Below are positions 1,500-64,000 of a DNA stretch of 64,000 nucleotides, piece after piece (positions within the stretch are counted from its first letter, which is position 1; each line of letters starts with the position of its first letter). The notes below the pieces were generated by a model. The model made no database searches. It saw only the letters and a list, made by a program, of their open reading frames with translations, and had not been told where the DNA came from. This DNA comes from Thermoanaerobaculia bacterium (GTDB lineage: Bacteria > Acidobacteriota > Thermoanaerobaculia > Gp7-AA8). Both the position numbers and the translations under genes were made by a program. The stretch lies in contig DATISF010000028.1 in assembly GCA_035468985.1 (NCBI GenBank), forward strand, positions 38,937 to 102,936, in the 5' to 3' direction.

Positions 1500-2174
1500 C
1501 TACTCTCCGAGCTTCTGCAGCAGAACTCGCAGCTGCTCGTGAAGTTCCTCGACGCGCGCTTCCAGGCGCGTGACGCGCGCTGACAATGGAGTCCCGGCTT
1601 CAGCCGGGGCCTGCGTTTCGACGACGGCCTCCTCCACCGCCCCACCCGCGGTGTGAACCCAGCGCGATTCCTTCTGTCCCGGCCTCCGCTGCAGCTCGCG
1701 GACGAGGGGCTCGCTGTGCCCAGCCATGTCGCGCAACGTGTCTTCGACTTCCGCAACGGTCTCGAACCGATGCAGCCGGTCGCTTCGCCCGCGCAGTTCA
1801 CCGGGAGTCTGCGGCCCGCGCAGAAACAGCATCGTGATGATCGCCTTTTCCGCCGGCTTGAGATGCCACACCTTGTCGAGGTTGTGGTCGAAGCGCACTG
1901 CTCGCCCGCCCATCACACGCCAGGCGAGCTTCTCGTCCTGCAGGCGATCGAGCGCGCGCTGCACATCCGCTTCAGAAAGCTCCATGACCGGTTCGCGATT
2001 CGATTTCTGATTGCAGGCCGCGACGAGCGCATTGAGCGTCAGCGGATAGTACTCGGGCGTCGAGAGCTGCTTCTCCATCAGGCTGCCGAGGATGCGGATT
2101 TCGGCAGGTTCGAGGGCGCGGGGGATGCGCGGGCGCTGCGGCGAGTCGGTGTCGAGGGTCGGGACGAAGCTCAT
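1500..2174 (-). CDS. yceH: YceH/DUF480-family protein
   Basis: The protein is 224 aa with ...LSTPEYYPLTLNALVAACNQKSNREPVM...FLRGPQTPGELRGRSDRL...LEARVEELHEQ. This is the conserved UPF0502 pattern. The start codon overlaps the upstream gene's stop (ATGA at 2171-2174). Confidence 0.7.
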   Translation of the reverse strand: MSFVPTLDTDSPQRPRIPRALEPAEIRILGSLMEKQLSTPEYYPLTLNALVAACNQKSNREPVMELSEADVQRALDRLQDEKLAWRVMGGRAVRFDHNLDKVWHLKPAEKAIITMLFLRGPQTPGELRGRSDRLHRFETVAEVEDTLRDMAGHSEPLVRELQRRPGQKESRWVHTAGGAVEEAVVETQAPAEAGTPLSARVTRLEARVEELHEQLRVLLQKLGE

Positions 2175-3430
2175 TCGGGGATTGTATCCGTGCGGTGTTC
2201 GGGGTTCGGGGTTCGGGGTTCGCTGGGCCTCTGGCCCTTCGAGCCGCGAATGACGAACACCGGCTCGCGGGCTGTCCTCGGCTGTCCGAAATAGTTGTCC
2301 ACCCTCATCGCCACGCTCCTCGCCAAGGACATGAACGTGGTCAGCTTTCCGCCGAAAACGTTGATCAGGTTGCGGGAGCGGGCCACGCGGGAGTCGCGGG
2401 ATATCGCGCTCGGGTTCGTGGCCCGGCCGACCAGCGGGCGCACGCCGGCGAACGTCGAGGCGATGCCGGCGTGCGAGATCGGCTCGCGAAAGTAGTGATT
2501 GAACCGGGCCAGCAGGTATTCGATCTCCTCATTGGACGGTTCAACGTCGTCGAGCGAATCGCGATGGACGACTTCGGTCGTCCCGACCAGCGTCGTCTCC
2601 TTCCATGGCAGGACAAAAAAGACGCGGCGATCGCTGATCGACTGGAGGAGAAATCCGACATCGCTGACGCGGCGCCTCAGGACGAGGTGGCTTCCACGGA
2701 TCAGCGACAAGACGTATCGCGCACGGATGCGGTTCTGGCGCAGGAGGTCGTTCATCCAGGGGCCGGCTGCGTTCACGACCAGGTCAAACGGCTCCTCCCC
2801 GCGAGCGGAGCGGACGACCCAGCCATCGCCGTTGCGCTGCAGCGAGTCGACACGGGTGTGCTCGAGAACCCTCGCTCCTTCCGATTCCGCGGAGGCGATC
2901 ACCGTCCGCGTGAGCGCGTAATCGTCGGCCTGCGCATCCCAGTACGAAAATCCGCCGCGCAGCCCCTCTGTGATCAGCGGACCGCGCGCGGCGATCTCGC
3001 CGGTCGAGAACGCCCGGTGCCGGTGAATGTTCTTGCGGCCTGCAAGGACGTCGTAGAGCGTCAGGCCGATGCGGATCGTGAACCGCGATCGCGGGCTGTC
3101 CTCGTAGACCGGCAGGAAGATCTCCACCGGCCGGACCAGCTCCGGCAGATGCTCCAGCAGCCAGGCGCGGTCGCGGAGAGACTCGCGTACGACGCCGAAC
3201 TGCAGATGCTCGAGGTAGCGCAGACCGCCGTGGACCATCTTCGTTGAGCGGGACGACGTCTGTGCGCCGCACTCACCCTTCTCGAAGAGCACGACGTCGT
3301 AGTCGCGGCGCGCCAGCTCCCACGCGATGCCGGCGCCATTGATCCCACCGCCCACCACGGCCACACGCTTGCGCCCTGCGGAACGTCGCGCCGCATGATT
3401 CTCGTTCGACGAAATTTTGGCAGATGCCAT
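2171..3430 (-). CDS. FAD-dependent oxidoreductase of the glycerol-3-phosphate dehydrogenase/oxidase (GlpD/GlpO-like) type
   Basis: The N-terminus has the VAVVGGGINGAGIAWELA dinucleotide fold, and a KMVHGGLRYLE motif is present. The start was trimmed to the ATG at 3430 (MASAKISS...), because the upstream part of the long ORF overlaps the divergent patatin gene. The C-terminus carries a (GGGGTTC)3 repeat. Confidence 0.65.
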   Translation of the reverse strand: MASAKISSNENHAARRSAGRKRVAVVGGGINGAGIAWELARRDYDVVLFEKGECGAQTSSRSTKMVHGGLRYLEHLQFGVVRESLRDRAWLLEHLPELVRPVEIFLPVYEDSPRSRFTIRIGLTLYDVLAGRKNIHRHRAFSTGEIAARGPLITEGLRGGFSYWDAQADDYALTRTVIASAESEGARVLEHTRVDSLQRNGDGWVVRSARGEEPFDLVVNAAGPWMNDLLRQNRIRARYVLSLIRGSHLVLRRRVSDVGFLLQSISDRRVFFVLPWKETTLVGTTEVVHRDSLDDVEPSNEEIEYLLARFNHYFREPISHAGIASTFAGVRPLVGRATNPSAISRDSRVARSRNLINVFGGKLTTFMSLARSVAMRVDNYFGQPRTAREPVFVIRGSKGQRPSEPRTPNPEHRTDTIPE

Positions 3431-3433
3431 GCA

Positions 3434-4639
3434 ATGGCTCAGTGCGTGAGCGCGCTGGAGCGCATCGTAACGGCACTGACTCCGAAGGAACAGACCGGCG
3501 ATCTGGCCGTCATGTTGACCGGGGGCGGCGCCCGAGCCGCTTATCAGGTCGGATTGCTCCTTGGCCTCGCCCGCCATTACCCGAACCTGAAATTTCAGAT
3601 CGTCACCGGCGTCTCCGCCGGCGCGATCAACGCCGCGTTTCTCGCGGCACACACGGGATCGCTCGCTCAGAAAGCGCGCGACCTGGAGCAGGTCTGGTGC
3701 GAGCTCGAATGGAGCAGCATCTGGAGCTTCGACTGGAGACGCGCGCTGCCGTTCCATTCGGCGTTCACCTCCATCTTTCCGAAACATCGATGGACGAAGC
3801 CGCAAGGCGCCGTCGACACCGCGCCGCTGGCGCGGCTGCTGTATCGCGTGATGGATGCCAGGCCCGGCCAGCCGATCCGCGGCATCGCCGAAAACCTCGA
3901 GCGCGGAGACCTGCATGCGGTCGCGGTCAATACGCTGGACTATTCGACCGGCCAGAGCGTGCGCTGGGTCCAGGGCCACCACGACGATACGTTCGAGGGC
4001 CCCAACCGGCGTTCCGTCGCCACACACCTCACGGTCGAGCACATTCTGGCCTCCTGCGCGCTGCCGTTCTTCTTTCCGGCCGTGCAGATCGGCTCGCAGT
4101 GGCACGGCGACGGAGGGATCCGTCTCGCCGCGCCGCTCTCTCCCGCCTTACATCTCGGCGCGCGCCGCGTGATCGCCATGTCCACCGGCTACCAGCGCAC
4201 GGATGCCGAAGCGTCGACACCCGTGGTTCGCGGATATCCGCCGGCAGCGCAGATTCTCGGCCAGCTGATGAACGCCATCTTTCTCGACGTCATCGACGAA
4301 GACGTCGTCCGCATGGAGCGGATGAACGACATCATCACGAAGCTCGACGCGCGCGAGCGGGACGGTCTCAAGGCCATCGATCTGCTCGTCCTACGACCTT
4401 CCGAGGATCTCGGGAAGCTGGCCACCGCGTACGAGAAATACCTCCCCCGCTACATGAAGCTATTCACCCGCGCCCTCGGCGCGAAGCAGACCGAGTCGCC
4501 CGATTTCATCTCCCTGCTGATGTTCGAGCCTCGCTACACCCGCGAGCTCATCGACATCGGCAAGGCCGACGTCGACTCCCGGATCGACGAGATCCACGGT
4601 TTCCTCGGAGATGCCGTGCCGCAAATCGCGGCTCTCTGA
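3434..4639 (+). CDS. Patatin-like phospholipase
   Basis: The protein has the GGGARAAYQVG oxyanion motif, the GVSAG (GxSxG) nucleophile motif and a DGG catalytic Asp motif. The start is taken at MAQCVSALE. Confidence 0.75.
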   Translation: MAQCVSALERIVTALTPKEQTGDLAVMLTGGGARAAYQVGLLLGLARHYPNLKFQIVTGVSAGAINAAFLAAHTGSLAQKARDLEQVWCELEWSSIWSFDWRRALPFHSAFTSIFPKHRWTKPQGAVDTAPLARLLYRVMDARPGQPIRGIAENLERGDLHAVAVNTLDYSTGQSVRWVQGHHDDTFEGPNRRSVATHLTVEHILASCALPFFFPAVQIGSQWHGDGGIRLAAPLSPALHLGARRVIAMSTGYQRTDAEASTPVVRGYPPAAQILGQLMNAIFLDVIDEDVVRMERMNDIITKLDARERDGLKAIDLLVLRPSEDLGKLATAYEKYLPRYMKLFTRALGAKQTESPDFISLLMFEPRYTRELIDIGKADVDSRIDEIHGFLGDAVPQIAAL

Positions 4640-4676
4640 CATAATCGCCGGACGAGACTTCAATCTCGGCTCTCTG

Positions 4677-5813
4677 ATGGCCGTTCTCGAGCTGGAGCTG
4701 CTTGGCGATTTCCGCATGCGCGCGGAGTCGGGCGCATTGATCAACATCTCTGCGAAAAAATCGCAGGCGATGCTGGCGTACCTCGGCGTCAAGCCTGCCC
4801 AGCTCGTCTCCCGCGACAAGATGGCCGCCCTCCTCTGGAGCAGTACCGCCACCGAACAGGCCCGGCAGAGCCTCCGTCAGACACTTTCCAGCCTGCGGAA
4901 AGAGCTCGCCCAGATCTCCAAGGACCGGAAGATCCTCGTTGAGGAAGGGGACTTCCTGTCGGTCGACCCCGATCTCGTGCAGGTCGACGTCGCCGAATTC
5001 GAAAAGGGCCTCGGATCCGGAACCGAAGAAGGCCTGGCCCGCGCGGTCTCGCTCTATCGCGGCGATTTTCTCGAGGGCTTCGAGCTCGATGAGGAGCGTT
5101 TCGACCAGTGGGTGATCGCCGAGCGCGACCGGCTGCACCGCGCCGCGCTTCGTGCCCACTCGCAACTGGTCGAGATCCAGACCCGCAACGGCGCGCGGGA
5201 CGACGCCATCGCCACCGCCCAGCAGGCGCTGCGCATCGATCCGCTGCAGGAGAGCATGCATCGCACGCTCATGAAGCTGTACATGGACAGCGGCGATCTC
5301 GTGAACGCCGTCCAGCAGTACGACATCTGCGCGCGCACGCTGAAGCGTGAGCTGCAGATCGAGCCCGATGCCGAGACGCGCAAGCTCTTTCAGCAGGTCG
5401 CGCAGCTGCGCTCGAAACGCGGTGCGGAAGGGGAACCGGCCGGCGACGAGAAGAAGCTGGTGTTGATCGTCGAGGACAACGTCCTGAACCGCGAGCTGGT
5501 CAGCGCCATCCTGACGACCGCCGGCTATCGCATCATGGTCGCGCAGGACGGGGCCGAGGCGCTGATGATGCTGGGCCGCGAGCAGATCGACCTGATGCTG
5601 CTCGACATCGATCTCCCCTACATCGACGGCCACAGCCTGCTGCGAGCCGTGCGCGAAAAAGGCATGCAGGTTCCGACGATCTTCGTTTCCGGACTTCCGG
5701 GCGAGGAGCCGGAGCTGCGTGCATTCGAAGTGGGAGCAGCGGACTTCATCCGTAAGCCGGTGAAGAACAGCGTGTTGCTCGCGCGCGTCGCCAAGGTTCT
5801 CGGCGAGCCGTAG
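4677..5813 (+). CDS. SARP/AfsR-family regulator (OmpR-type winged helix plus BTAD domain) fused to a C-terminal response-regulator receiver domain
   Basis: The N-terminus reads MAVLELELLGDFRMR...AMLAYL, which is the SARP wHTH. BTAD helices run to about residue 250. The C-terminal part has a canonical receiver: VLIVEDN, LLDIDLP, TIFVSG and a conserved K. Confidence 0.7.
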   Translation: MAVLELELLGDFRMRAESGALINISAKKSQAMLAYLGVKPAQLVSRDKMAALLWSSTATEQARQSLRQTLSSLRKELAQISKDRKILVEEGDFLSVDPDLVQVDVAEFEKGLGSGTEEGLARAVSLYRGDFLEGFELDEERFDQWVIAERDRLHRAALRAHSQLVEIQTRNGARDDAIATAQQALRIDPLQESMHRTLMKLYMDSGDLVNAVQQYDICARTLKRELQIEPDAETRKLFQQVAQLRSKRGAEGEPAGDEKKLVLIVEDNVLNRELVSAILTTAGYRIMVAQDGAEALMMLGREQIDLMLLDIDLPYIDGHSLLRAVREKGMQVPTIFVSGLPGEEPELRAFEVGAADFIRKPVKNSVLLARVAKVLGEP

Positions 5814-18349: not shown

Positions 18350-18860
18350 ATGACCAGGAACGGACGAAGCGCGCCGGCATGACGGCTGGGGAATCCTTGC
18401 GCAGGTCGTTGCTCACGTCATCCTGAGCCGCGAAGACGGCGAAGGATCTCGAAATGGTACGCGTTTTCGCATTCTGAGATCCTTCGTCGCGCTTCGCCGA
18501 CTCAGGATGACGTGAACATCCAGGGGCGGATGGCCACGGCAACGAGGGCGGCCACGACGATCGCCGACGATCGCCGCGCTCGCGGCCGGTGCAATCATTG
18601 CCCTGCTGACCAGGAACGGACGACGCGCGCCGGCATGACGGCTGGGGAATCCTTGAGCAAGTCGTTGTTCACGTCATCCTGAGCCGCGAAGACGGCGAAG
18701 GATCTCGAAATGGCACGCGTTTTCCCATCCTGAGATCCTTCGTCGCGCTTCGCCGACTCAGGATGACGTGAACATGGCCACGGCAACGAGGGCGGCCACG
18801 ACGATCGCCAACGATCGCCGCGCTCGCGGCCGGTGCAATCATTGCCCTGCTGACATGGTC
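18350..18860. repeat. Two tandem copies of a roughly 260-bp composite unit, each containing a reverse-oriented REP-like element (18396-18516 and 18651-18773) plus about 120 bp of spacer
   Basis: The segments starting with GACCAGGAACGGACGA at 18350 and 18609 are near-identical. The REP arms are GTCATCCTGAGCCGCGAAGACGGCGAAGGATCTC and GAGATCCTTCGTCGCGCTTCGCCGACTCAGGATGAC. Confidence 0.8.
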
Positions 18861-18874
18861 GCTGCGCTGCTTCC

Positions 18875-19984
18875 TCACTTCCGAATCGCTTCAGCGATGC
18901 GGACGACCTCCGACTCCATCTCCACGCCGAACTCGCTCCGAATCTCGTAGATCCAGCCGTAGAGGAGCTCGTTGAGGATGTTGTGCACGACCGCGCCACG
19001 GTCGGCCGAGCCGGACGCGATGAGATTGTTCAGCAGCTGATCGAAATCGATGCGGCCCTCATTGACGAAATTCATCCCGCTCAGGTAGGGCAGCGTCTCC
19101 GGCGAGAGCTGCAGGACCACACGGTCCATGAAGTCGTAGACGTGGTCACCGACCTTCTGAAGAACGAGGGCGAAGATCTGCTGGAACGCGGTGTTGTAGC
19201 GCTCGACGATCCCTTCGAGCTCGTACTCGGTCGCCTCGGCCTCACGCTTCTCGACGAGGTCCGCGCCGGCCGCGTCCTGCACGAGGTTGATCACCAGGAG
19301 TCCCCACAGCGTGCGGCAGGTCGAAAAGTTCGTCAGGTAGCTTCGCTTGCAGACACTTTCGACGGTTTGGGCGCTCTCGCCGAACAGCGAGAGAACGTGC
19401 CCTTCCTCGTCGTTGAGCTCCAGCTGGTAGGCGCGCGTATCGGCGCCGGGCACCTGTTCGAGAAGGCGGTCCAGTCTTCCGATGCCGCGCATGATCAGCG
19501 ACCAGAAGTCGATCGACTCCACTCCGTCCAGAACGAGACGCTCGGTCGAAAGCGGAAGGGTGATGATCTCGTCGGGAAAGTTCGACGTGAACTCGATCGT
19601 GTAACTGCCGGTCCGGTACCGCATGGCGTTGACCACGATCGCGCTCGACTGCCTCTCCACCGCGCGGCTCAGCTCCTCCGGCTTGAGGTAGCCGAGCTCG
19701 ACGAGCAGTGCGCCGATCCGCCGCGAGACGACCAGCCGGTCCATCACGTTGTTGTATTGCTGCAGATTCAGCTCGCCCGTGCGAAGCAGCGTTTCGGCGA
19801 GTCCGACGTCCTGATCGGTGGATGACGCGAAGATGATCCGCCCTTCGTTGAAGTAGATCGTGTCGTTGCGGCCGATGGCGTCGAGCGAAAGGATCGCCGT
19901 CTCGCCGGAACGGAGGATGGAACGGAAAAGGTCGGGGACAGTCGTCTCCGCCAGCGTGCCTTGAATCGAGAGTTCTTCGGACAT
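18875..19984 (-). CDS. DUF4388-domain protein
   Basis: The N-terminus, LAETTVPDLFRSILRSGETAILSLDAIGRNDTIYFNEGRIIFASS...GLAETLLRTGELNLQQ, matches the DUF4388 pattern. The start is taken at MSEELSIQ, directly downstream of the heptamer array. Confidence 0.6.
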   Translation of the reverse strand: MSEELSIQGTLAETTVPDLFRSILRSGETAILSLDAIGRNDTIYFNEGRIIFASSTDQDVGLAETLLRTGELNLQQYNNVMDRLVVSRRIGALLVELGYLKPEELSRAVERQSSAIVVNAMRYRTGSYTIEFTSNFPDEIITLPLSTERLVLDGVESIDFWSLIMRGIGRLDRLLEQVPGADTRAYQLELNDEEGHVLSLFGESAQTVESVCKRSYLTNFSTCRTLWGLLVINLVQDAAGADLVEKREAEATEYELEGIVERYNTAFQQIFALVLQKVGDHVYDFMDRVVLQLSPETLPYLSGMNFVNEGRIDFDQLLNNLIASGSADRGAVVHNILNELLYGWIYEIRSEFGVEMESEVVRIAEAIRK

Positions 19985-19986
19985 TT

Positions 19987-20045
19987 GGGATTCGGGATTC
20001 GGGATTCGGGGTTCGGGATTCGGGATTCGGGATTCGAGATTCGAG
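19987..20045. repeat. Tandem heptanucleotide array (GGGATTC) of about 8 units, with one GGGGTTC and one GAGATTC variant, filling the whole GGDEF-DUF4388 intergenic space
   Basis: The direct read is gggattc gggattc gggattc ggggttc gggattc gggattc gggattc gagattc. Confidence 0.85.
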
Positions 20046-21356
20046 CTACGTGGTGGCCGGCTTCGTCGCGTCTTCCACCGTGGCAACGCCCACCGAGTTC
20101 TTCGTCGTCGACTTCACCTTGTACATCGCGGTGTCGGCCTGGCGGATCAGGCCTTCCTTGGTGATGGCATGGGTCGGATACGTGGCGATGCCGAAGCTGG
20201 CGGTGATGGAGATCTCGACATTCGCGTCGACATTGAAGACCGTCGCCGTCATCGCCTTGCGCACGCGGTTGGCCACGGCCATGGCCTGATCGGAATCGGT
20301 CTGCGGCAGGATGATGCAGAACTCGTCGCCGCCGAACCGCACGACCTTGTCGATGGCGCGCACGGCGCCGAGGATCCGTTTGGCCACTTCCTGAAGCGTG
20401 CGCGATCCGGTGAGATGGCCGTAAAAGTTGTTGACCATCTTCAGGTCGTCGAGGTCGAGGAAGATGATGCTGAAGAGCGTCCCGTACCTGCGGGACCGCT
20501 CGATCTCCTCGTCGAGGTAGGACTCGAAGAAGCGACGGTTGAACGCTTTGGTCAGGTCGTCGCGCATGGCCAGGTCGCGGCTGCGCGTCAACTGGTAGAT
20601 GTTGCTCAACACCTGGCCGACCGCGGCCAGATACCGGCTCACGTTGAATGCGCCTTCGTCGGTGAACGCGTCCTTCGCCTGGAGCGGCACCTTGATGACG
20701 CCGATCAGGTCCTCGTTGACCTGCAGCGGCATGACGATCATGCCGGTCCCGTTTTTCTCCCGTTCTGAGGCGAGGAGATTTCCCGACGACAGAGCGCGCT
20801 GCAACAGTCCCGGCGGAACGCCGGGAAGAAACTCGCTGGTCTCGTGATAGCTCGAGTCGTTGCTGAAACTGACGACGTAGCGCTCCAGCCGGGGGTCGTG
20901 AAGGAAGAGCGTACCCGTCTCGAGTCCGAGGAGGTCGAGGACCGTGTGCGTGATCTTCTCCGACACTTCGTCGGCTTCGACCATCGACATCATTTCGTGG
21001 ATCTGCCCGAGGTAGGTGACTTCCTGCTCCAGTTGAGAGGCGTGAGCGGCGGTCTCGGCCAGGTCATCCGCGAAGTCGAGGTACTCACCAGGGTTGTTCA
21101 GAAAGGCATCGCGATTCACGCGGATCTCGCCGCGACGCCGTTGCGGCGGCACGTCGTTTTCGCAGAGGACGATCCGCACGAGACTCTTGCGCGGCGGGGA
21201 GTCGAGAACCTTGTGCGAGTCGGCGTCGATGACGACGATCCGCGACGGGTCGTCCCCTTCGCCTGCCGCGACGAAGTTGGATGACCGGCACGCCTCGCGA
21301 AGGCGTCGGACGAGGTCGCCCCGACCCGAATAGACACCGACAGATTGCTGGTTCAT
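20046..21356 (-). CDS. GAF-domain diguanylate cyclase (GGDEF)
   Basis: The central part has a GAF-like fold. The C-terminal GGDEF domain carries the RFGGDEF A-site, and an I-site-like RxxD lies upstream. Confidence 0.8.
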   Translation of the reverse strand: MNQQSVGVYSGRGDLVRRLREACRSSNFVAAGEGDDPSRIVVIDADSHKVLDSPPRKSLVRIVLCENDVPPQRRRGEIRVNRDAFLNNPGEYLDFADDLAETAAHASQLEQEVTYLGQIHEMMSMVEADEVSEKITHTVLDLLGLETGTLFLHDPRLERYVVSFSNDSSYHETSEFLPGVPPGLLQRALSSGNLLASEREKNGTGMIVMPLQVNEDLIGVIKVPLQAKDAFTDEGAFNVSRYLAAVGQVLSNIYQLTRSRDLAMRDDLTKAFNRRFFESYLDEEIERSRRYGTLFSIIFLDLDDLKMVNNFYGHLTGSRTLQEVAKRILGAVRAIDKVVRFGGDEFCIILPQTDSDQAMAVANRVRKAMTATVFNVDANVEISITASFGIATYPTHAITKEGLIRQADTAMYKVKSTTKNSVGVATVEDATKPATT

Positions 21357-21397: not shown

Positions 21398-22195
21398 ATG
21401 CGCATCGTCCAGATCGTTCTTCCCGCCGTCACCGCGTTCGAGGAGAAGTGCCGCCGCGTCGATCACTCGACTCTCTCCACGAGACACGAAGTCCTCGTCG
21501 CCGGACCGAAGGAACCTCTGCCCGCCGCGGATGTCGCCCACGTGTACGGCCCCGGCGAACTTCCGGCTGCTGCCTTCATCGGGTTTCGACTCCCTTATGT
21601 CGCATCCTCTGAGCCAGTTGGGCGGGCCTGGGTTCGAAAGCCGGCGCGGCCTGCCTACGTGCTGTCGCCGTTGGAGAGTCCGGAGCCGGTGGAGGAGGTC
21701 TTCTTCCAACTCGAGTCCCGAATCCCGAGCCCCGAGTCCCACGTGCTCGGATCGTTTGCGAGGTCGTCGATCGCCAACCTCATCGAGCAGACGCTGGGCC
21801 GCATTCGCCGTTTCCGCGACGATGTCGAGTGGCGGCTTTTCGAGCGCGCGCCGACGCCCGAGGATCTAGCCGGCGTAGACGCGTGGGTCGATCCTGCCAC
21901 CGCCGAGGATGATCTCGACGGCTTCGTCGCCGAGGCGCTCGTGTCGGGCAAACCCGTTGTGGCATCGAGAATTACGATCAATTTGCAGCGCCTCGAAAAA
22001 GGGCGCACCGGCTTCCTCGTTCCGCCGGGAGATCCCAACGAGCTCACTCATGCGATACTAACTGCCCTATTCAAGCCAGAGGTGGCGCGAACGAAAATTG
22101 AGGCAGCACGACAGACCGCCGGCAAGTTCCGGCCCAGGCAACGCCTTCGTCTGCTCGAGCGTATCTACGAGACCGTGATGAAGCCGTCATCCTGA
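21398..22195 (+). CDS. Truncated or degenerate family-1 (GT4-like) glycosyltransferase with an internal heptamer repeat
   Basis: The C-terminal half, FVAEALVSGKPVVASRI...GRTGFLVPPGDPNELTHAIL, is a GT4 C-terminal domain. The protein has only 265 aa against about 370 expected. A (GAGTCCC/GAATCCC) repeat lies at 21706-21733 in the middle. The 3' end runs into a REP-like hairpin. Confidence 0.4.
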   Translation: MRIVQIVLPAVTAFEEKCRRVDHSTLSTRHEVLVAGPKEPLPAADVAHVYGPGELPAAAFIGFRLPYVASSEPVGRAWVRKPARPAYVLSPLESPEPVEEVFFQLESRIPSPESHVLGSFARSSIANLIEQTLGRIRRFRDDVEWRLFERAPTPEDLAGVDAWVDPATAEDDLDGFVAEALVSGKPVVASRITINLQRLEKGRTGFLVPPGDPNELTHAILTALFKPEVARTKIEAARQTAGKFRPRQRLRLLERIYETVMKPSS

Positions 22196-22252: not shown

Positions 22253-23491
22253 ATGACCCGAATCCTCGAAATCCCGAATCCACAACGGCGAGCCATCGAT
22301 CTTGTGAAAGAGGTGGCGGCGGAGAAGGAATGCCGTCCATTCCTCGTCGGCGGTCCGGTGCGCGACCTGCTCCTCGGCCGCCCCGTCTCGGACGTCGATC
22401 TGACGCTCGAGGAGGGCAGCTCGGTCCTGGCCCGGGCGCTGGCCAAGAGAATCGAAGGCCGCGTCCGCTCTTACCCCCAGTTCCTGACGTACAAGGTCAG
22501 CGCCGACGGCTTTCCCGAGATCGACATCGCCACGGCCCGCAAGGAGAAGTACCGGGCACCCGGGGCGCTCCCGACCGTATCGGAAGGGAAACTCAAGGAC
22601 GACCTGCTGCGGCGCGATTTCGCGATCAACGCCATGGCCATGGATCTCCTCGACGGGACGATCCACGACCCGGCCGGCGGTCAGCATGACCTCTCCACGA
22701 GGGTCGTCCGCGTTCTTCACGACAACAGCTTCATCGACGACCCCACCCGCATCTTCCGCGCGATTCGCCTCGCCAAGCGTCTCGGATTCTCGATCGAGCA
22801 TCACACGGCGGAGTGGATGAAGCGCGCCATCGCCGGCGGCGCACTCTCGGCGGTCTCGCGCGAACGCTTGTGGCGCGAGCTGTTCCTGGCGATGGACGAG
22901 CGTGAGGCGCCGAAGATCCTCGTGGCGCTCCACAAGGCGCACGCGCTCGTTCCGATCTTCGGACTGGAATTGCGCGCCGGGAATCCTGATCCGTTCGAGA
23001 AAATCCGGCGCCAGGTCGAGGCGCAGCCGAACCTCGATCGCTACGTCCTCTACACGGGCATGCTGCTGCGCGGCACGGATGCGACGGCGGCGAACCTCGA
23101 AGGCTCGGGCTTCTCGCAGAAGCGCGCGCGGGCCGTGCTGCAGATCGCGCGCGACCTGTCGCGGTTCAAGAAAGCCCTCAACGGAGCGGCCTCCGACCGC
23201 CAGCGATTCCGGCTGTTCAAGACGATGTCTCCCGAACTGCTGATGCTCCTCGTGGCCGACCGCCCCGAGGAACGCACGAATGTGTCGCGATTCCAGGAGT
23301 TCCAGAAGTTCAAGCTGCCACTCCGCGGCGACGATCTCGAGGTGCCGGTCGGGCCGCATATCGCCCGGGCGCTCGAACGGACCCGCGAGGCGGTCTTCAG
23401 CGGGGAGATCCCGCCGGATCAGGCGCGTTCTTTTGCCCGCGGCCTGGCCATCAAGTATCTTAGTCGGGAGCAACCGGCCGATCCGAAATGA
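22253..23491 (+). CDS. cca: CCA-adding enzyme / tRNA nucleotidyltransferase
   Basis: The polymerase-beta head motif is FLVGGPVRDLLLG...DVDL. An RRDFAINAMA motif is present and the C-terminal helical tRNA-binding part is long. The first codons sit in a GAATCCC-type heptamer stretch. Confidence 0.75.
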   Translation: MTRILEIPNPQRRAIDLVKEVAAEKECRPFLVGGPVRDLLLGRPVSDVDLTLEEGSSVLARALAKRIEGRVRSYPQFLTYKVSADGFPEIDIATARKEKYRAPGALPTVSEGKLKDDLLRRDFAINAMAMDLLDGTIHDPAGGQHDLSTRVVRVLHDNSFIDDPTRIFRAIRLAKRLGFSIEHHTAEWMKRAIAGGALSAVSRERLWRELFLAMDEREAPKILVALHKAHALVPIFGLELRAGNPDPFEKIRRQVEAQPNLDRYVLYTGMLLRGTDATAANLEGSGFSQKRARAVLQIARDLSRFKKALNGAASDRQRFRLFKTMSPELLMLLVADRPEERTNVSRFQEFQKFKLPLRGDDLEVPVGPHIARALERTREAVFSGEIPPDQARSFARGLAIKYLSREQPADPK

Positions 23492-24298: not shown

Positions 24299-24880
24299 AT
24301 GTCGTCCCTCCGAATCACGGCCGGAACCCTTCGCGGCCGCCGCATCCCTGTTCCGCGCGGCGACGTCCGACCGACATCCGAACGCGCTCGTCAGGCGTAC
24401 TTCAACATCGTCGGCGACCGGATCGCCGGCGCGAGCTTTCTCGATCTTTTCGCCGGCAGCGGCATCTTCTCGTTCGAAGCGGTGTCGCGCGGTGCGGCAT
24501 CATCGACGGCCATCGATCGCGACACGGCCGGAATTGCGAAGCAGGCCGAAGACCTCGGCGTAACCAACATCCAAACGATTGCCGGTGATGCTCTGAGCGC
24601 GCTGAAACGCCTGCCCGCCGAACGGTTCGATCTCGTCTACGCCGATCCGCCGTACGACTATGACCGCTACGGCGATCTGCTCGAAGCGATCGAAAAAATC
24701 CATCTCGCCGATGAGGCGATCGTGGCGGTGGAACACAGACGCCGCACAGATCTGTTCAACCGAGGACCGAGGAGCGGGGACCGAGGACTGAAATCTCTGC
24801 GCCGCGCCGAATACGGCGAGGTGTGGATCACGTTCTTTCAGGCTGAGACTGCCACAGGAATTGCAATGGAAAACGAATGA
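24299..24880 (+). CDS. rsmD: 16S rRNA (guanine966-N2)-methyltransferase
   Basis: RsmD motifs are present: FLDLFAGSG (SAM-binding) and VYADPPY (catalytic). The start is the ATG at 24299 just after the upstream stop. Confidence 0.8.
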   Translation: MSSLRITAGTLRGRRIPVPRGDVRPTSERARQAYFNIVGDRIAGASFLDLFAGSGIFSFEAVSRGAASSTAIDRDTAGIAKQAEDLGVTNIQTIAGDALSALKRLPAERFDLVYADPPYDYDRYGDLLEAIEKIHLADEAIVAVEHRRRTDLFNRGPRSGDRGLKSLRRAEYGEVWITFFQAETATGIAMENE

Positions 24881-26287: not shown

Positions 26288-26942
26288 CCTCCGCGCAAGT
26301 CGTCATCCTGAGTCGGCGAAGCGCGACGAAGGATCTCAGGATTCGAAAACACGTGCCATTTCGAGATCCTTCGCCGTCTTCGCGGCTCAGGATGACGTGA
26401 ACGACGACTTGCGCAGAGGTCCACAAGTACTGCTGTGGCACGGTAAGTACTGCTGTGGCCGCGGCGCAGCACATCGATCTTCTCTCGCATATGACGGTGT
26501 CGCACTTCGCATCGCTGTTCAGGGATGTCCCCTAGGGAAGCTCTGCACAAGTCGTTGATCACGTCATCCCGAGTCGGCGAAGCGCGACGAAGGATCTCCG
26601 GATGCGATAACGCCTGCCATTTCGAGATCCTTCGCCGTCTTCGCGGCTCAGGATGACGTGAACGACGACTTGCGCAGAGGTCCACAAGTACTGCTGTGGC
26701 CACGGCAAGTACTGCTGTGGCCGCGGCGCAGCGCATCGATCTTCCCTCGCATATGACGGCGCTGCACTTCGCATCGCTGTTCAGGGATGTCCCCTAGGGA
26801 AGCTCTGCACACGTCGTTGATCACGTCATCCTGAGTCGGCGAAGCGCGACGAAGGATCTCCGAATGCGACAACGCCTGCCATTTCGAGATCCTTCGCCGT
26901 CTTCGCGGCTCAGGATGACGTGAACAACGACTTGCGCAGAGG
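26288..26942. repeat. Tandem array of three REP-like elements (26288-26419, 26539-26680, 26802-26942) separated by two near-identical roughly 115-bp spacers
   Basis: The period is about 250-260 bp. The spacers contain the internal direct repeat AAGTACTGCTGTGGC twice. Confidence 0.85.
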
Positions 26943-26946
26943 TCGA

Positions 26947-28092
26947 CTAGAACTCGATGATGCCGTCCTTCCAGAGCTTGTAGAAGATCATCAGCGCATC
27001 GGCCTCTCGGATCGGGCTGATCTTGATCAGCGATCCAATGTCCCACGTTCCGTTGATGCGCGAGAGGATGAAGCCCTCGTTCGGAGTGAAGTTCATGGTC
27101 GTGATCTCTTCGAGCGACTTCGTGACGCGGGGGACTTCGTTGTCGTGAATCCCCTGATTCCGCAGTTCGGCCATGATGACCGCCTCGGCGCCCTTGACCG
27201 CGCTGCGGACTTTCGGGTGATTGGAGTCGAGATTCTGCGCCGCCTTCAGCAGCCGCTGGGTCTTGTCGAAGTCCTTGGCGCGTAGTGCGGTCTGGGCGGC
27301 GCTGAGGAGCGAGTTGATCTCGTCGGACTCGTTGAAGCCCGCTTCCACCGCCGGGAACGGCTCCGGCTCGGCAGGCGCCCCGCCCGCCACCGCCGCTTCC
27401 AGCAGCTGAATGAACCCGGCCCGCACGAGCGGGCGCAACGTCGAACAGACGATGAATGACGACGAACGGCTTTCCAGCACGATCTCGGCGATGGTCCGCT
27501 TGCCGTCGATCGAGTCGATCACCTGTGTCTGTGCCTCGCCGAATTCTTCATCGACCTCGATCGGCTTCTGCACCACCGGCACGACCGCGTCGTTCGGAAT
27601 CACCTCGCGGATCCGCGGCCATTCGTCCGATCGCCGCGTCCCCTCCATGATGATCCCGGTGACGTCGATGCGCAGCGGCACCATTTCCATCTGTGGCAAC
27701 TCGTCGTCGAGGAATTGGAAAGTCCCCTCTTTCCACAGGAAGACGTCGAAGATCTCCTCCTCCGCCTTGAGGCGCATGAGCCGCGTCAGGTCCTTCTCGG
27801 TGATGAGGCCAATGATGACCAGAATCTTGCCGAGAAGGATGCTCGACTGCTGCTGGACCTCCATCGCCTTGCGCAGCTCTTCCTCGTTCAGATAGCCGTG
27901 GCTCATCAGGAACTGGCCGAGGTATTCGCGGGGATCGTTGGATGCGGAGGAGATGACGCGGCCGGACTCGAAGAAGATCTTCTTTTCGACGTCCTTGCTG
28001 GTGACGACGAGAGTGCCGGTCTTCTGCGCCAGGCTCAACCACTGAAGCAGGTCGCCCGGCAGCATCGACTTCAGGTTACCGCTGACTCCCAT
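26947..28092 (-). CDS. DUF4388-domain protein, second paralog
   Basis: The N-terminus, LPGDLLQWLSLAQKTGTLVVTSKDVEKKIFFESGRVISSASND...LGQFLMSHGYLNEEEL, matches the DUF4388 pattern. Confidence 0.6.
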   Translation of the reverse strand: MGVSGNLKSMLPGDLLQWLSLAQKTGTLVVTSKDVEKKIFFESGRVISSASNDPREYLGQFLMSHGYLNEEELRKAMEVQQQSSILLGKILVIIGLITEKDLTRLMRLKAEEEIFDVFLWKEGTFQFLDDELPQMEMVPLRIDVTGIIMEGTRRSDEWPRIREVIPNDAVVPVVQKPIEVDEEFGEAQTQVIDSIDGKRTIAEIVLESRSSSFIVCSTLRPLVRAGFIQLLEAAVAGGAPAEPEPFPAVEAGFNESDEINSLLSAAQTALRAKDFDKTQRLLKAAQNLDSNHPKVRSAVKGAEAVIMAELRNQGIHDNEVPRVTKSLEEITTMNFTPNEGFILSRINGTWDIGSLIKISPIREADALMIFYKLWKDGIIEF

Positions 28093-28150: not shown

Positions 28151-28219
28151 CTCCTCGGTTCTCGGTCGAGAATTGGTTCGGGGGAAACCGAGGACCGAGG
28201 ACGGGAGGACCGAGGACCG
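28151..28219. repeat. Inverted repeat built from CGAGGAC-type heptamers in the divergent DUF4388/mcm promoter region
   Basis: The left arm is CTCCTCGGTTCTCGGTCG. The right arm is CGAGGACCGAGGACGGGAGGACCGAGGACCG. Confidence 0.5.
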
Positions 28220-28223
28220 CTGC

Positions 28224-29825
28224 ATGTCAGACACGAAAGAAAAATCGCCAAGGACCACCACCAGCGGCATCGAGCTCCCCGTCTATTTCGACGAGATCGC
28301 GCTCCATGAGCGCGGCTTCGATCCGCAGGCCGATCTCGGCGTCCCCGGCTCATTTCCGTACACCCGCGGTCCGCAGGCATCGATGTACCGGGGCAAGTTG
28401 TGGACCATGCGGCAATACGCCGGATTTTCCACGGCCGCCGAGTCCAACCAGCGCTATCGCTACCTGCTCGAGCGCGGGACGACCGGACTCTCGGTGGCGT
28501 TCGATCTGCCGACGCAGATCGGGATGGACTCCGACGATGTGCGCGCGCGCGGCGAAGTCGGCAAGGTCGGCGTGGCCATCGATTCGATCGACGACATGGA
28601 GGCGCTGCTCGACGAGATCCCACTCGACCGCGTGTCGATCTCGATGACCATCAACGCGCCGGCGTCGATCCTGCTGTCGCTGCTGCTCGTGGTCGCGGAA
28701 CGGCGCGGGATCGCCTGGTCGAAACTCAACGGCACGATTCAGAACGACATCCTGAAGGAGTACGCCGCGCGCGGGACGTACATCTTCCCACCCGCTCCGT
28801 CGATGCGCATCGTGACCGACATCTTCGAGTTCTGCGCGAAGGACGTGCCGCGCTGGAACACGATCTCCGTGTCGGGCTATCACATCCGCGAGGCCGGATC
28901 GACGGCGGTGCAGGAAGTGGCGTTCACCCTGGCCAACGGGCTCGAGTATGTTCGCGCCGCCGTCGCGCGTGGGCTCGACGTCGACTCGTTCGCGCCGCGC
29001 ATCTCGTTCTTCTTCAACGCCCACAACGATTTTCTCGAAGAGGTGGCGAAGTTCCGCGCCGCGCGAAAGCTGTGGGCGAAACTGATGCGCGAGCGGTACA
29101 ACCCGAAAGACCCGCGCTCTCTGGCCCTGAGATTTCATGCGCAGACCGCCGGCTCCACGCTCACCGCACAGCAGCCGGAGAACAACGTCGTCCGCGTCGC
29201 CTACCAGGCCATGGCCGCCGTCCTCGGCGGCTGCCAGTCGCTGCACACGAACAGCCGCGACGAGGCGCTGGCGCTTCCGACGGAGGAATCGGTGAACATC
29301 GCGCTGCGGACGCAGCAGGTGCTGGCGTACGAGACCGGCGTGGCGGCGACCGCGGATCCGCTGGCCGGCTCCTACGCCGTCGAGTCGCTGACGCTCGACA
29401 TCGAGCGCGGTGCGGCGGAGCTGATCGAGCGCATCGACAAGCTCGGCGGCGCGATTCACGCGATCGAGAGCGGCTTCGTGCAGAACGAGATCGGCGAGTC
29501 GGCGTACCGGGCGCAGCGGGCCATCGAGGAGAAGCAGGCCATCGTCGTCGGCGTGAACGAGTTCACCGAAGACGGACAGAGCACGCTGCCGATCATGGTC
29601 ATCGACGAGAGCGTCGAGCGCGACCAGGTCGCGCGACTGCAGGCGTTCCGTTCAAAACGCTCGCGCGACTGGAAAGGCGCCCTGGAAAAACTCGACGCCG
29701 CGGCACGATCGAAAGAGAACCTCATGCCGCGTATCGTCGACGCCGTCCGCAACGAATGCAGCGTCGGCGAGATCGTGTCGACGCTGAAGAAGACGTTCGG
29801 CGAGCATCGGGAACAAAGCTTCTGA
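28224..29825 (+). CDS. Methylmalonyl-CoA mutase-family large (catalytic) subunit without a fused B12-binding domain
   Basis: The conserved MCM TIM-barrel motifs are present: FPYTRG...[15 protein letters not shown], the [14 protein letters not shown] stretch, and [13 protein letters not shown]. The protein is 533 aa and stops before the usual C-terminal cobalamin-binding Rossmann domain. Confidence 0.85.
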
Positions 29826-36868: not shown

Positions 36869-37010
36869 CCTCCGCGCAAGTCGTCGTTCACGTCATCCTG
36901 AACCGCGAAGACGGCGAAGGATCTCGAAATCGCGGCGTCTTGCGCATCCTGAGATCCTTCGTCGCGGTTCGCCGACTCAGGATGACGACTTGTGCAGAGG
37001 TTCTGTCTCA
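36869..37010 (-). repeat. REP/MITE-like palindromic element in reverse orientation
   Basis: The sequence is CCTCCGCGCAAGTCGTCGTTCACGTCATCCTGAACCGCGAAGACGGCGAAGGATCTC...GAGATCCTTCGTCGCGGTTCGCCGACTCAGGATGACGACTTGTGCAGAGG. Confidence 0.85.
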
Positions 37011-41454: not shown

Positions 41455-41546
41455 CGGTCCTCGCTCCTCGCTCCTCGGTCCTCGGTTGGTTCCGAGGAGC
41501 ACTCCCAGACCCACACGGCCGGTCGGCTCTCCTGAACTCTCTCCGC

Positions 41547-41790
41547 ATGAACCAAATGAGCTCCGACCGCAATTTGCAGGTTTGGCAGTTGAGTGGCGTC
41601 CTTACAAAGGATGGTTACGCATTGACGGATGCATTTCCAGGGTCCGAAGTCTTCGGCCTCAGCGTGCAGATGCGTCGGGCCGCCGCATCAATCATGTGCA
41701 ACATAGCAGAAGGACAGGGACGATGGTCTGCGCGCGATCAGTGCCACTTCTGCTCGATCGCTCCTAGCACGCGGAGCCGAAATCCCGTGG
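41547..41790 (+). pseudogene. Truncated four-helix-bundle protein of the '23S rRNA intervening-sequence protein' / DGR Avd-like family
   Basis: NLQVWQL...FPGSEVFGLSVQMRRAAASIMCNIAEGQGRWSARDQCHFCSIAPSTRS matches the family core (KVWQ...FGLTSQxRRAAVSIPSNIAEG...F..IA.GS). The last helix is missing. The reading frame then runs out of frame into the next gene. Both sides are flanked by CGAGGAC-type repeats. Confidence 0.45.
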
Positions 41791-41832
41791 ACCGAGGACC
41801 CAGGGCCGAGGACTGGATACAATCCCTCCCGC

Positions 41833-50661: not shown

Positions 50662-51357
50662 GTGTCTTTGCCCGTCACGGTGATCATCGCCGCGCGGAAC
50701 GAGGAGGAGGCCGTGACGGCGGCCGTGCGCTCGGCATTCGAGTCCGGCGCCGCGGAGGTCATCGTCGCCGATGGTGGAAGCACTGATCGCACGCGCCAGG
50801 CTGCCGCATCCGCGGGCGCACGCGTGATCGAATGCCAGCCGATGCGCGCCCGCCAATACAACCGGGCCGCGGAGACGGCAGCGAACGAGGCCCTGGTCTT
50901 TCTCCACGCCGACACATTGCTGCCAGCCGGCGCAGGGGCGGCGGTGCTCGACGCGCTGCAACGCGCGCCGTTCGGAGGTTTTCGCCTCCGCTTCGCCGAA
51001 CAGGCGTGGAAACTACGGCTCGCGGCATTCCTCATCAATCTCCGCACACGTCTCACGCTCTCTCCGTGGGGCGATCAAGCGCAGTTCATCCGCCGCGCGA
51101 CATTCCTTCGCGACGGCGGCTTCCGGGAGATTCCGCTGATGGATGACTACGAGCTCGCCGTGCGCATGCGGCGCCGCGGCCGGCCGATCGTCCTCCCGCT
51201 CACCGTGATCACCTCCGGCCGTCGCTTTCTGCGCCTCGGCCTGCTGCGCACCACCGCGATGAACTGGACGATCGTGATCGCGTGGCGGTTGGGGGTTTCG
51301 GAGGAGAGGCTGGCTGGCTGGTATCGGGAACGGGAGAACGGGAATGGTGAATGTTGA
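50662..51357 (+). CDS. Family-2 glycosyltransferase (TIGR04283-like)
   Basis: The N-terminus, VIIAARNEEEAV, the LHAD motif and overall GT-A features match a family-2 enzyme. Confidence 0.65.
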   Translation: MSLPVTVIIAARNEEEAVTAAVRSAFESGAAEVIVADGGSTDRTRQAAASAGARVIECQPMRARQYNRAAETAANEALVFLHADTLLPAGAGAAVLDALQRAPFGGFRLRFAEQAWKLRLAAFLINLRTRLTLSPWGDQAQFIRRATFLRDGGFREIPLMDDYELAVRMRRRGRPIVLPLTVITSGRRFLRLGLLRTTAMNWTIVIAWRLGVSEERLAGWYRERENGNGEC

Positions 51358-51375
51358 ATGCGATCAATTCACCAT

Positions 51376-51411
51376 TTCGCATTCGACATTCGACATTCCA
51401 CATTCCCGTCT
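51376..51411. repeat. Tandem heptamer array of CATTCGA, ACATTCG and ACATTCC units (GAATGTC/GAATGTG on the other strand)
   Basis: The read is cattcgacattcgacattccacattccc, directly downstream of the TPR and GT2 gene ends. Confidence 0.6.
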
Positions 51412-63832: not shown

Positions 63833-64000
63833 GACCTCTGCGCAAGTCGTCATCCTGAGTCGGCGAAGCGCGACGAAGGATCTCAGGATGCGAAAACGCG
63901 GCGATTTCGAGATCCTTCGCCGTCTTCGCAGATTGCGGGAACTCATCAGGAGGCGGGTGACTCGGGATTCAGTCCGGTGATCGACGGGCGCAGCGTCATG
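63739..64000. repeat. Direct duplication of about 190 bp (3' end of the OMP gene plus the truncated REP). The second copy starts at 63929 and runs off the window.
   Basis: The segments 63739-63810 and 63929-64000 are identical except for 1 mismatch. The junction is at the microhomology CGCAG. Confidence 0.75.
63833..63928 (+). repeat. Truncated REP-like element (left arm and loop only)
   Basis: The sequence is CCTCTGCGCAAGTCGTCATCCTGAGTCGGCGAAGCGCGACGAAGGATCTC...GAGATCCTTCGCCGTCTTCGC. It is then interrupted. Confidence 0.8.

Follow-up and report, generated by a model that had tools for sequence, protein, structure and literature searches.

Here, we analyze a 64,000-nucleotide stretch of DNA from a Thermoanaerobaculia bacterium (Acidobacteriota; hereafter, the window) and, within it, a tandem heptanucleotide array, (GGGATTC) x8.7, at 19983-20045 on the plus strand (92% matches in Tandem Repeats Finder [TRF]). 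The array lies between a GGDEF gene (20046-21356, minus strand) and a DUF4388/PatA_N gene (18875-19984, minus strand), both assigned with Pfam. As stated in a preliminary description made from the sequence alone, it fills the whole gap between these genes, i.e., the 61 nt from the GGDEF stop codon (20046-20048) to the DUF4388 ATG (19984). We establish directly the anatomy, distribution and turnover of such arrays and their association, across phyla, with genes of the PF05635 family. We consider it likely that the arrays are copies of one dispersed intergenic family and represent the stem modules of a selfish hairpin element of the intervening sequence (IVS) type, most of them being cargo-less or solo arms. 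The feature is real and ordinary in kind; what is added here is the cross-phylum link to S23p/IVS genes and a testable hypothesis.

The GGDEF-DUF4388 junction was compared across 23 loci (related loci are designated L followed by a number). In 11 loci, the genes overlap or are separated by at most 14 nt (−4 to +14 nt) without an array. The window has a lone array, L044, L045, L057, L043, L032 and L019 have arrays or inverted pairs, L030, L038 and L061 have inverted arms with a small gene, and L022 and L023 have a different palindromic element. Because the spacer in 11 related loci measures −4 to +14 nt, the array at 19983-20045 is an insertion, and it appears to have split a junction that overlaps or nearly abuts in these relatives. 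The mRNA strand of the array is (GAAUCCC)n and the G-rich strand is the template strand. The (GAAUCCC)n strand is predicted to be unstructured (−2.9 kcal/mol, z +1.5), and a Shine-Dalgarno sequence is absent from the spacer ahead of DUF4388. This lone spacer would merely part two once translationally coupled cistrons and leave an unstructured leader; an effect of the array on DUF4388 translation is a conjecture.

Abundance, anatomy and position of the arrays

Heptamer arrays are in excess in the window over both chance and other periods, as in heptameric long simple sequence repeats (SSRs) and short tandemly repeated repetitive (STRR) sequences. A strict scan that compared periods 4 to 12 and required at least three copies found six period-7 arrays and zero to two arrays for each other period, and 30 dinucleotide-preserving shuffles of the window gave a mean of 0.03 and a maximum of 1. 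To describe the wider distribution, the cca-like protein of the window was used to retrieve five syntenic loci from metagenome-assembled genomes (MAGs) of Thermoanaerobaculia bacteria (62-77% amino acid identity) as well as unrelated controls, and a metagenome scan with the DUF4388 protein gave 45 further soil contigs. Period-7 arrays are frequent in the relatives and almost absent from the controls. In the 254 kb of metagenome loci, there are 90 arrays of period 7, 21 of period 6, and at most 8 of any other period. Pooled into a clade set of 392.6 kb, the related loci contain 118 period-7 arrays, or 1 per 3.3 kb. Most of these have four units (60 arrays), five units (26 arrays), or three units (21 arrays), with a maximum of 11, and 64 of the 118 are arranged as 32 inverted pairs, whose arms are 6-75 nt apart and give stems of ∼28 bp.

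The sequence of the unit is much less constant than this anatomy. Clade units are diverse and mostly not G-rich (GGTTGGC, CCGAGGA, others and, lacking any G3 tract, GAATGCA, GAATTGA, AGTGGTC and ATAGCAG). The same unit recurs at several sites of one contig with different loops (L043, L038, L006 and the window), and units of different contigs lie within one mismatch of each other in 6.7% of pairs vs. 2.0% expected. Expectation-maximization alignment of the clade units yields a weak R-C-N-G-A-N-N core (4.69 bits vs. a null maximum of 3.99). A universal consensus was rejected, as several arms from other phyla fall outside this core, and single-linkage clustering of units was uninformative owing to chaining. 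In the inverted pairs, the 5′ arm is purine-rich on both strands in 25 of 29.

These properties bear on the idea that the arrays are G-quadruplex (G4) regulatory elements of the GGGNATC type, in which four G3 tracts on the non-coding strand near open reading frames (ORFs) would fold as a G4. GGGATTC is one base from GGGAATC, and the array at 19983-20045, with its G-rich strand being the non-coding one and its place directly upstream of an ORF in a pair of co-oriented genes, matches exactly the preference reported by Rehm et al. for such repeats; moreover, four of the nine putative G4 motifs in the window are heptamer arrays (19987-20011, 2201-2227, 21717-21740 and 54992-55015), and the preference for four units is shared. 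GGGATTC is not an exact fit to the GGGNATC class, and the CCGAGGA and GAATGTC arrays of the window do not satisfy the G3N1-7 x4 pattern. More importantly, most clade units lack a G3 tract and yet have the same period, the same four-unit mode and the same positions, and the four-unit rule extends to arms made of octamers (L077 and L082; see below). Because non-G3 units and octamer arms obey the same rules, G4 formation cannot be the unifying property, and we consider a G4 explanation very unlikely.

The arrays have a strong positional preference. In the clade set, 100 of 118 (85%) are intergenic, while intergenic DNA makes up 12.7% of the sequence; 15 of the remainder overlap gene ends and 3 are internal. 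Arrays usually start 0-10 nt past a stop codon or end a few nucleotides before a start codon. Spacers between co-directional genes hold 65 of 89 arrays and convergent spacers 7 of 89, the latter making up 14% of intergenic nucleotides. Lone arrays have no strand bias relative to transcription (12 sense, 16 antisense). Altogether, the clade arrays have the traits of STRR-type repeats, i.e., many loci, a bias to intergenic DNA near ORF ends, approximately four units, and inverted pairs. The preliminary description had placed such arrays at or inside the 5′ ends of genes; arrays indeed lie directly before start codons, but they also lie directly after stop codons, and a few are in-frame in linkers.

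Turnover is evident among contigs that are 90-96% identical. Comparison of these contigs reveals filled and empty sites at which conservation of the coding sequence reaches as far as the stop and start codons and the spacer differs in its entirety. This turnover is difficult to reconcile with a scenario in which the arrays are host-serving hairpins similar to repetitive extragenic palindromic (REP) elements and are maintained by selection as terminators, as stabilizers of mRNA 3′ ends, or as sites for a nucleoid- or RNA-binding protein. Hairpins right after stop codons that are very stable by prediction (−32 to −71 kcal/mol, z −3 to −8) would suit such a scenario, as would the enrichment in co-directional spacers, which is similar to that of REP and bacterial interspersed mosaic elements (BIMEs), and the T content in the 10 nt past the 3′ arm (0.30 vs. 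a background of 0.19). However, with only 15 of 64 flanks having at least five T in these 10 nt and convergent spacers being under-represented, the pairs are not canonical terminators, and there is neither a conserved core similar to the GTAG motif of REP elements nor a match to an Rfam family. Presence or absence of arrays at 90-96% identity and the lack of a sense-strand G·U bias (see below) likewise oppose a conserved function. We, therefore, regard selection for a host function as unlikely.

PF05635 genes between inverted heptamer arrays

One inverted pair in the window brackets a gene fragment. The left arm, (CGGTCCT) x4.6, lies at 41455-41486 (TRF) and has a 9-nt local complement at 41492-41500; the right arm, GGACCGAGGACCCAGGGCCGAGGAC, lies at 41789-41813 and is the reverse complement of the left-arm unit. 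Between the arms, on the plus strand at 41547-41765, is a truncated gene of the four-helix-bundle (4HB) family PF05635 (23S_rRNA_IVP), detected with Pfam (E 5e-20, profile positions 1-65 of 106) and tblastn. The genes on either side of this cassette encode a MacB-type permease and an M14 peptidase, and the cassette does not lie in an rRNA gene. It has a PF05635 ORF and bracketing inverted repeats able to form a stem of ∼28 bp, as in IVS cassettes, and it is not inserted in helix 25 or 45 of 23S rRNA. Thus, the window cassette is IVS-like in architecture and is not an rRNA IVS.

Full-length 4HB homologs lie between inverted arrays at L038, L061, L040, L048 and L051 (Pfam E 1e-36 for L051); L036 has a partial copy of the gene, and L030 has degenerate arms. 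Cargo-less arrays have the same unit as the cassette arms on their contig, and arm units vary between orthologous cassettes (TCCTCGG vs. AGTGGCC). The cassette downstream of DUF4388 is in opposite orientation in L051 (548-1089) and L040 (3514-4051), which are 92% identical; this switch is consistent with inversion by recombination between the inverted arms.

The association extends far beyond the clade. Non-clade 4HB homologs recovered by protein search are wedged in housekeeping operons, e.g., between nqrE and nqrF or between dprA and topA, and are flanked by inverted arrays of approximately four heptamers. The non-clade sample comprised 19 4HB genes from cyanobacteria, Bacteroidota, Gemmatimonadota, an Azospirillum 23S rRNA gene and other loci. 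TRF detected flanking 7- or 8-mer arrays at 18 of the 19, on both sides in 14 and on one side in 4, and the 19th (L065) has degenerate arrays that were seen by eye. The first 12 non-clade loci (88.6 kb) contain 23 period-7 arrays, 20 of which are found no more than 150 nt from the 4HB gene, in a zone that makes up 10% of the sequence (binomial P 1e-17). In addition, a tblastn search of 72,556 plasmids with the 4HB gene gave matches in 30 records, mostly from the classic STRR taxa Nostoc, Calothrix, Trichormus and Anabaena, others being from Riemerella, Azospirillum and Gemmatirosa.

Twelve annotated plasmid regions, carrying 13 4HB genes, were examined. The two genes of N. punctiforme have the arrays GGGTGTG/ACACCCT and AAGTCGG/ACTTCCG; the genes of Calothrix and Riemerella are flanked by arrays, as are those of Pseudanabaena and Anabaena sp. 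90 (both between cas6 and cas4) and of Geminocystis (between parA and parB). In Nostoc edaphicum, AGTAGGG x7.9 and TCCCTAC x4.9 bracket the gene between nrdB and nrdA, while the gene of Nostoc PCC 7120, which has an insertion sequence (IS) element upstream, has an array on one side only. The Azospirillum copy, with arms GAGGACG x3.9 and GTCTTCT x4.1, lies inside a 23S rRNA gene (Rfam LSU, 1792-4990), and because of this position we regard it as a genuine IVS with heptamer-array stems. The remaining arms consist of octamers: Gemmatirosa (L077, 2835-3379) has ∼4 copies, Picosynechococcus (L082, 2447-2873; between cas10 and cmr3) ∼3.4-4 copies, and Leptolyngbya (L083, 2422-2487) x8.4 on one side and degenerate repeats on the other. 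In the first two, arms have ∼3.4-4.4 copies each. Three of these cassettes thus lie inside CRISPR-Cas operons (L079, L080 and L082). The operon of Picosynechococcus is of type III-B, the other two are of type I-D, and Pseudanabaena has additional heptamer arrays between other cas genes. Separately, arrays at L014, a Patescibacteria MAG locus (812-1169; TGTATTT and GAGTTGC x14.7), lie in or beside a prmC/hemK-like ORF.

Among solved structures, that of XCC0516 of X. campestris (PDB 2GSC), which has five chains, is closest to the cassette protein. We predicted a heptamer array at XCC0516 before consulting the published repeat table for this species, and the prediction was borne out: repeat #15 in the supplementary table of Rehm et al. 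consists of four GGGAATC units in the interval from XCC0517 to XCC0516 and extends into the start codon of XCC0516 (PMC4692102).

These associations are also relevant for a mutational explanation, in which the replicative polymerase slips preferentially in steps of 7 nt, the resulting arrays are tolerated only in intergenic DNA, and 4HB genes enter or persist in hairpins that already exist. The great diversity of unit sequences, the one-unit differences between strains (see below), and the lack of transposition hallmarks and of a signal of selection at the RNA level agree with such a by-product, and preferential slippage by 7 nt is a hypothesis that Mrazek reportedly put forward in 2007. By contrast, recurrence of one unit at several loci per genome and the likeness of units across contigs argue against it, and slippage alone leaves the matched inverted arms, the size of approximately four units, and the purine-rich 5′ arm unaccounted for. 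Moreover, genomes poor in arrays hold them almost only beside 4HB genes, including in a 23S rRNA gene that had no pre-existing array. We, therefore, consider slippage as the sole source of the arrays quite unlikely.

Further arrays of the window and arrays inside genes

TRF reports 11 period-7 rows in the window, at 2193-2222, 19983-20043, 21712-21740, 24759-24788, 28187-28219, 41455-41486, 51342-51360, 51376-51405, 54988-55021, 55053-55081 and 59521-59536. Of the sites at which the preliminary description had listed heptamer arrays, all but one hold genuine arrays. The exception, 22253-22284, has no TRF row and is ordinary coding sequence: the first 10 codons of the cca-like gene merely resemble GAATCC, and the N-terminus they encode, MTRxLEIPNPQRRAID, is conserved in orthologs whose DNA is not periodic. 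Two features had been overlooked, namely the array at 24759-24788 in rsmD and the inverted partner at 51342-51360. That description also took the affected genes to be housekeeping genes, which agrees with their identities (GGDEF, DUF4388, DAO, yceH, rsmD, methylmalonyl-CoA mutase, pcnB and lepB).

Four inverted pairs in the window (28151-28219, 41455-41505, 51342-51406 and 54988-55083), which the preliminary description had recognized only in part, have predicted folds of −22 to −71 kcal/mol (z −2.7 to −8.1). The first (−39.5 kcal/mol, z −3.0) consists of a short arm, CTCCTCGGTTCTCGG (28151-28166), and (ACCGAGG) x4.6 (28187-28219), and is located in the divergent spacer between a second DUF4388 gene, DUF4388b (26947-28092, minus strand), and a methylmalonyl-CoA mutase gene (ATG 28224, plus strand); the corresponding spacer in L006 holds an inverted pair with a different unit. 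The last units of the array end 5 nt before the mutase ATG and include GGAGGA at a distance of 14 nt upstream of the ATG (28205-28226); the array itself may be a source of the Shine-Dalgarno sequence of this gene. The pair at 51342-51406 (−32.0 kcal/mol, z −5.1) consists of (GAATGGT/GAATGTT) x2.7, a 15-nt loop, and (TTCGACA) x4.4 (TRF) between a GT2 gene (stop 51357) and a convergent TPR gene (stop 51413). The most stable pair, (CCTCGGG) x4.9 at 54988-55021 and, after 31 nt, (CCGAGGC) x4.1 at 55053-55083 (TRF; −71.4 kcal/mol, z −8.1), lies just downstream of the lepB stop codon (55089). A lone array, (CGGGGTT) x4.3 at 2193-2222 (TRF), falls within the last 17 codons of a DAO-family ORF (2171-3364, minus strand), beyond the end of the Pfam domain, and the ATG of yceH/DUF480 (2174) is 19 nt downstream of it.

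The arrays in rsmD and in a GT1-family gene are in frame, as protein alignments demonstrate. The array (ACCGAGG) x4.3 at 24759-24788 inside rsmD (24299-24880, plus strand; TRF, Pfam) encodes RGPRSGDRGL and amounts to a net gain of four amino acids in a variable loop. The array (CGAGTCC/CGAATCC) x4.1 at 21712-21740 (TRF) in a GT1-family gene (21398-22195, plus strand) lies in a variable linker, and L002 carries an array with a different unit (ACCGAGG) at this place. Canonical start codons are absent from the part of pcnB that separates the inverted pair at 54988-55083 from the conserved DHPISRRQIPENVLKVLYRL block, which makes ATG 55102 the likely start; the pair would then correspond to codons 7-38. 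However, pcnB of E. coli has a non-canonical start codon, and such a start is a possible alternative here. With ATG 55102 as its start, the pcnB ORF shares 14 nt with the end of lepB (stop 55089-55091), and the window contains a second gene of the PolyA_pol family, the cca-like gene (22253-23491). In L021 (7140-7200) and L030 (7108-7160), the gene downstream of DUF4388 encodes a lipoprotein signal peptide whose hydrophobic core is read from a (TTCTGCC)n arm (VLFCLLPSAFCIFLAC and MKNYICLLLSAFCIAC), which looks like a repeat arm co-opted as coding sequence.

The preliminary description interpreted the arrays as contingency loci. At such loci, gain or loss of units by slipped-strand mispairing would alter the reading frame or the promoter spacing and so switch adjacent genes. 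In favor of this interpretation, the unit length is not divisible by 3, some ORFs contain arrays (pcnB in its 5′ region, rsmD, the GT gene and the DAO gene in its tail), and strains differing by one unit exist. However, several observations argue against it. First, 85% of the arrays are intergenic rather than in 5′ coding sequence or core promoters, the pair at the 5′ end of pcnB being the sole candidate for such a position. Second, the arrays in ORFs are in-frame inserts in variable linkers, and no frameshifted allele of an array-bearing gene was seen in any relative compared, which speaks against the frame-shifting potential attributed to them. Third, copy number changes slowly: exact-protein look-ups with DUF4388 and PhoH gave a single same-strain contig, with zero mismatches, in which copy numbers are identical; copy number is unchanged between L045 and L057 at 94-96% identity, and a one-unit difference appears between L027 and L050 and between L051 and L040 at 92-95% identity, i.e., changes do not exceed one unit at 5-8% divergence. 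Fourth, the neighboring genes have no association with surface structures, host interaction or restriction-modification. Fifth, most arrays form inverted pairs, which differs from the anatomy of phase-variation tracts. For Xanthomonas and Nostoc, Rehm et al. came to this view as well. Altogether, nothing suggests that the arrays switch neighboring housekeeping genes on and off, and we consider contingency loci extremely unlikely. For annotation, such tracts should not be taken as phase-variable, and ORF extensions through them should be viewed with caution.

A second, unrelated family of intergenic palindromes of ∼120 nt, with the core GTCATCCTGAG...CGAAGGATCTC...GAGATCCTTCG...CTCAGGATGAC, is found in the window at 1086-1207, 1343-1453, 18351-18610, 18728-18854, 26301-26944, 36876-36987 and 63848-63929. 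At 26301-26944 it forms 2.5 tandem copies of a 262-bp unit, and a related element occupies the GGDEF-DUF4388 spacer in L022. The same-strain ENA contig L016, which has zero mismatches over 6.5 kb, departs from the window just after ybeY at the 262-bp repeat, and from its position 7790 onward (window ∼26283 onward) continues into hemB and copper-resistance genes. Either one assembly is chimeric or the strains are rearranged at this repeat.

A proposed hairpin element and its relation to known systems

The basic module of the family consists of approximately four tandem heptamers (28-30 nt) and occurs in three forms: inverted pairs with a short loop and a stem of ∼28 bp, pairs with a PF05635 (S23p/23S-rRNA-IVS) gene in the loop, and solo arms. 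Solo arms may be lengthened by replication slippage, as for (GGGATTC)8.7 at 19983-20045. Solo and cargo-less copies would derive from, or be moved by, the cassette, similarly to non-autonomous and autonomous elements. The family lies in transcribed spacers at gene boundaries and turns over rapidly, retaining structure (period, approximately four units, inverted arms) over sequence, and its behavior is similar to that of a selfish cassette with numerous cargo-less derivatives. Once transcribed, paired arms may form long double-stranded RNA stems cut by RNase III; such a cut would sever the element from the host transcript, making insertion in operons and rRNA genes tolerable.

Several observations weigh against this model. 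The clade loci behind the counts are orthologous neighborhoods and not independent samples, and the genes against which array positions were scored were called with a self-trained codon model that gives crude calls. Only ∼14 of the 118 clade arrays adjoin a 4HB gene, the window has no intact 4HB gene, and its GGGATTC-type units are found as lone arrays without a partner arm. A 4HB gene predicted beside the arrays of L014 was not found. Because neither a target-site duplication nor a defined end of the element was seen when filled and empty sites were compared, mobility is not established. Similarly, co-directional pairs show no G·U bias at the RNA level (sense stabler in 10, antisense stabler in 15), and selection on the stems at this level is, therefore, not supported. 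Finally, RNase III cleavage is extrapolated from rRNA IVSs.

More tentatively, the excess of heptamers in bacteria may have a single origin, i.e., the arrays may be arms of PF05635 (S23p/IVS, Avd-like) cassettes and of the cargo-less and solo derivatives of these cassettes, with the pentameric 4HB protein as the heptamer-binding partner and arms of approximately four units as its binding or processing sites; we hold this to be possible but short of probable. Such an origin would extend to the cyanobacterial STRR sequences (1990) and the peak of heptamers in prokaryotic SSRs (2007) as well as to GGGAATC in Xanthomonas, the H4 elements of Geobacter and the Thermoanaerobaculia arrays. If true, sites for the 4HB protein would explain the preference for four units regardless of G content and even with octamer units. 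Heptamer arrays have been cataloged for 35 years without an origin or a function, and G4 formation, slippage and regulator sites were proposed for single genomes. The very high density of arrays in the Thermoanaerobaculia clade and its mostly non-G-rich units separate the conserved properties (period, approximately four units, pairing and position) from the sequence of the unit, and PF05635 genes consistently bracketed by arrays, in five named phyla as well as within a 23S rRNA, provide a concrete and testable candidate for where the arrays come from and for the protein recognizing them.

The kind of repeat is already known from Xanthomonas GGGAATC, cyanobacterial STRR sequences and the Geobacter elements. 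New, within the literature searched, are dispersed heptameric repeats in Thermoanaerobaculia and PF05635 genes between inverted heptamer arrays; our search found no paper linking genome-wide heptamer repeats to PF05635 genes, and such an absence is no proof of novelty. In Xanthomonas, Rehm et al. (2015) reported ∼185 GGGAATC arrays per genome, ∼90% of them intergenic, with four units preferred and 70-75 inverted pairs; these arrays lie near ORF ends and vary between sister species, phase variation was deemed unlikely in Xanthomonas and Nostoc, and the function was left open (PMC4692102). The Nostoc unit is GGGGA(C/T)T, and the STRR heptamers of cyanobacteria go back to Mazel 1990 as cited there (PMC4692102). 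The Xanthomonas and Nostoc repeats resemble the clade arrays in being dispersed and intergenic, with a mode of four units, convergent inverted pairs, co-oriented neighboring genes and a location within 50 nt of ORF ends, and GGGAATC is one substitution from GGGATTC at 19983-20045. They differ in that clade units are mostly not G-rich and clade density is ∼8-fold higher (1 per 3.3 kb vs. 1 per 27 kb). The published work makes no link to PF05635 genes despite the table entry at XCC0516. In a preprint on Nostoc, a heptamer-binding partner of unidentified nature is postulated.

In Geobacter metallireducens, an element composed of four GGGACCG heptamers is present in 49 copies, and sites of five heptamers, MTYCTGA, occur in pairs (PMC2700814). 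As in the clade, four to five tandem heptamers are dispersed between and within genes, with some palindromic pairs, and GGGACCG is one base from the GAGGACC family of the window; in contrast, the Geobacter elements are annotated as putative regulator sites or RNA elements with no cassette link described. The TAACTGA repeats of Beggiatoaceae, Cyanobacteria and Bacteroidetes are found in spacers that lack a Shine-Dalgarno sequence, a short distance upstream of start codons (MacGregor 2015, PMC4679880). In this respect they resemble the array at 19983-20045, which directly precedes a start codon and lacks a canonical ribosome-binding site; they differ in having one fixed unit and almost no inverted pairs, and they are proposed to be a translational regulator site. 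The contingency loci of Haemophilus and Neisseria share short tandem units able to slip and differ in position, gene class, stability and the absence of paired arms.

As a fallback, the preliminary description offered a second, very short REP-like class or sites of a repeat-recognizing protein, and this comes close to the evidence. REP/BIME elements and MITEs (miniature inverted-repeat transposable elements) are likewise short, dispersed, intergenic, hairpin-forming and strain-variable, with many non-autonomous copies. The clade arrays, however, lack a conserved palindrome core, a REP-associated tyrosine transposase (RAYT) or other transposase, and target-site duplications, and their arms are internally periodic. 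REP/BIME membership was rejected, as copies share only the weak R-C-N-G-A-N-N tendency and no RAYT gene is among the annotated genes of the window. MITE membership was rejected as well, since filled and empty sites show replacement of the whole spacer and no duplication. A scan of the whole window with Rfam gave no family match.

A further close parallel is with the IVSs of 23S rRNA that carry an S23p ORF, as in Coxiella and Leptospira. The Coxiella IVS has a 28-bp stem with tandem GACAGAT heptamers whose copy number varies between strains, and RNase III cuts at the first repeat (PMC4990558). The PF05635 ORF in the loop of an inverted-repeat stem of ∼28 bp is common to both, while the copies in the window lie between protein-coding genes, most copies have no ORF, and RNase III cleavage is known from rRNA IVSs only. 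The findings would recast rRNA intervening sequences as one landing site of a far more widespread operon-invading cassette.

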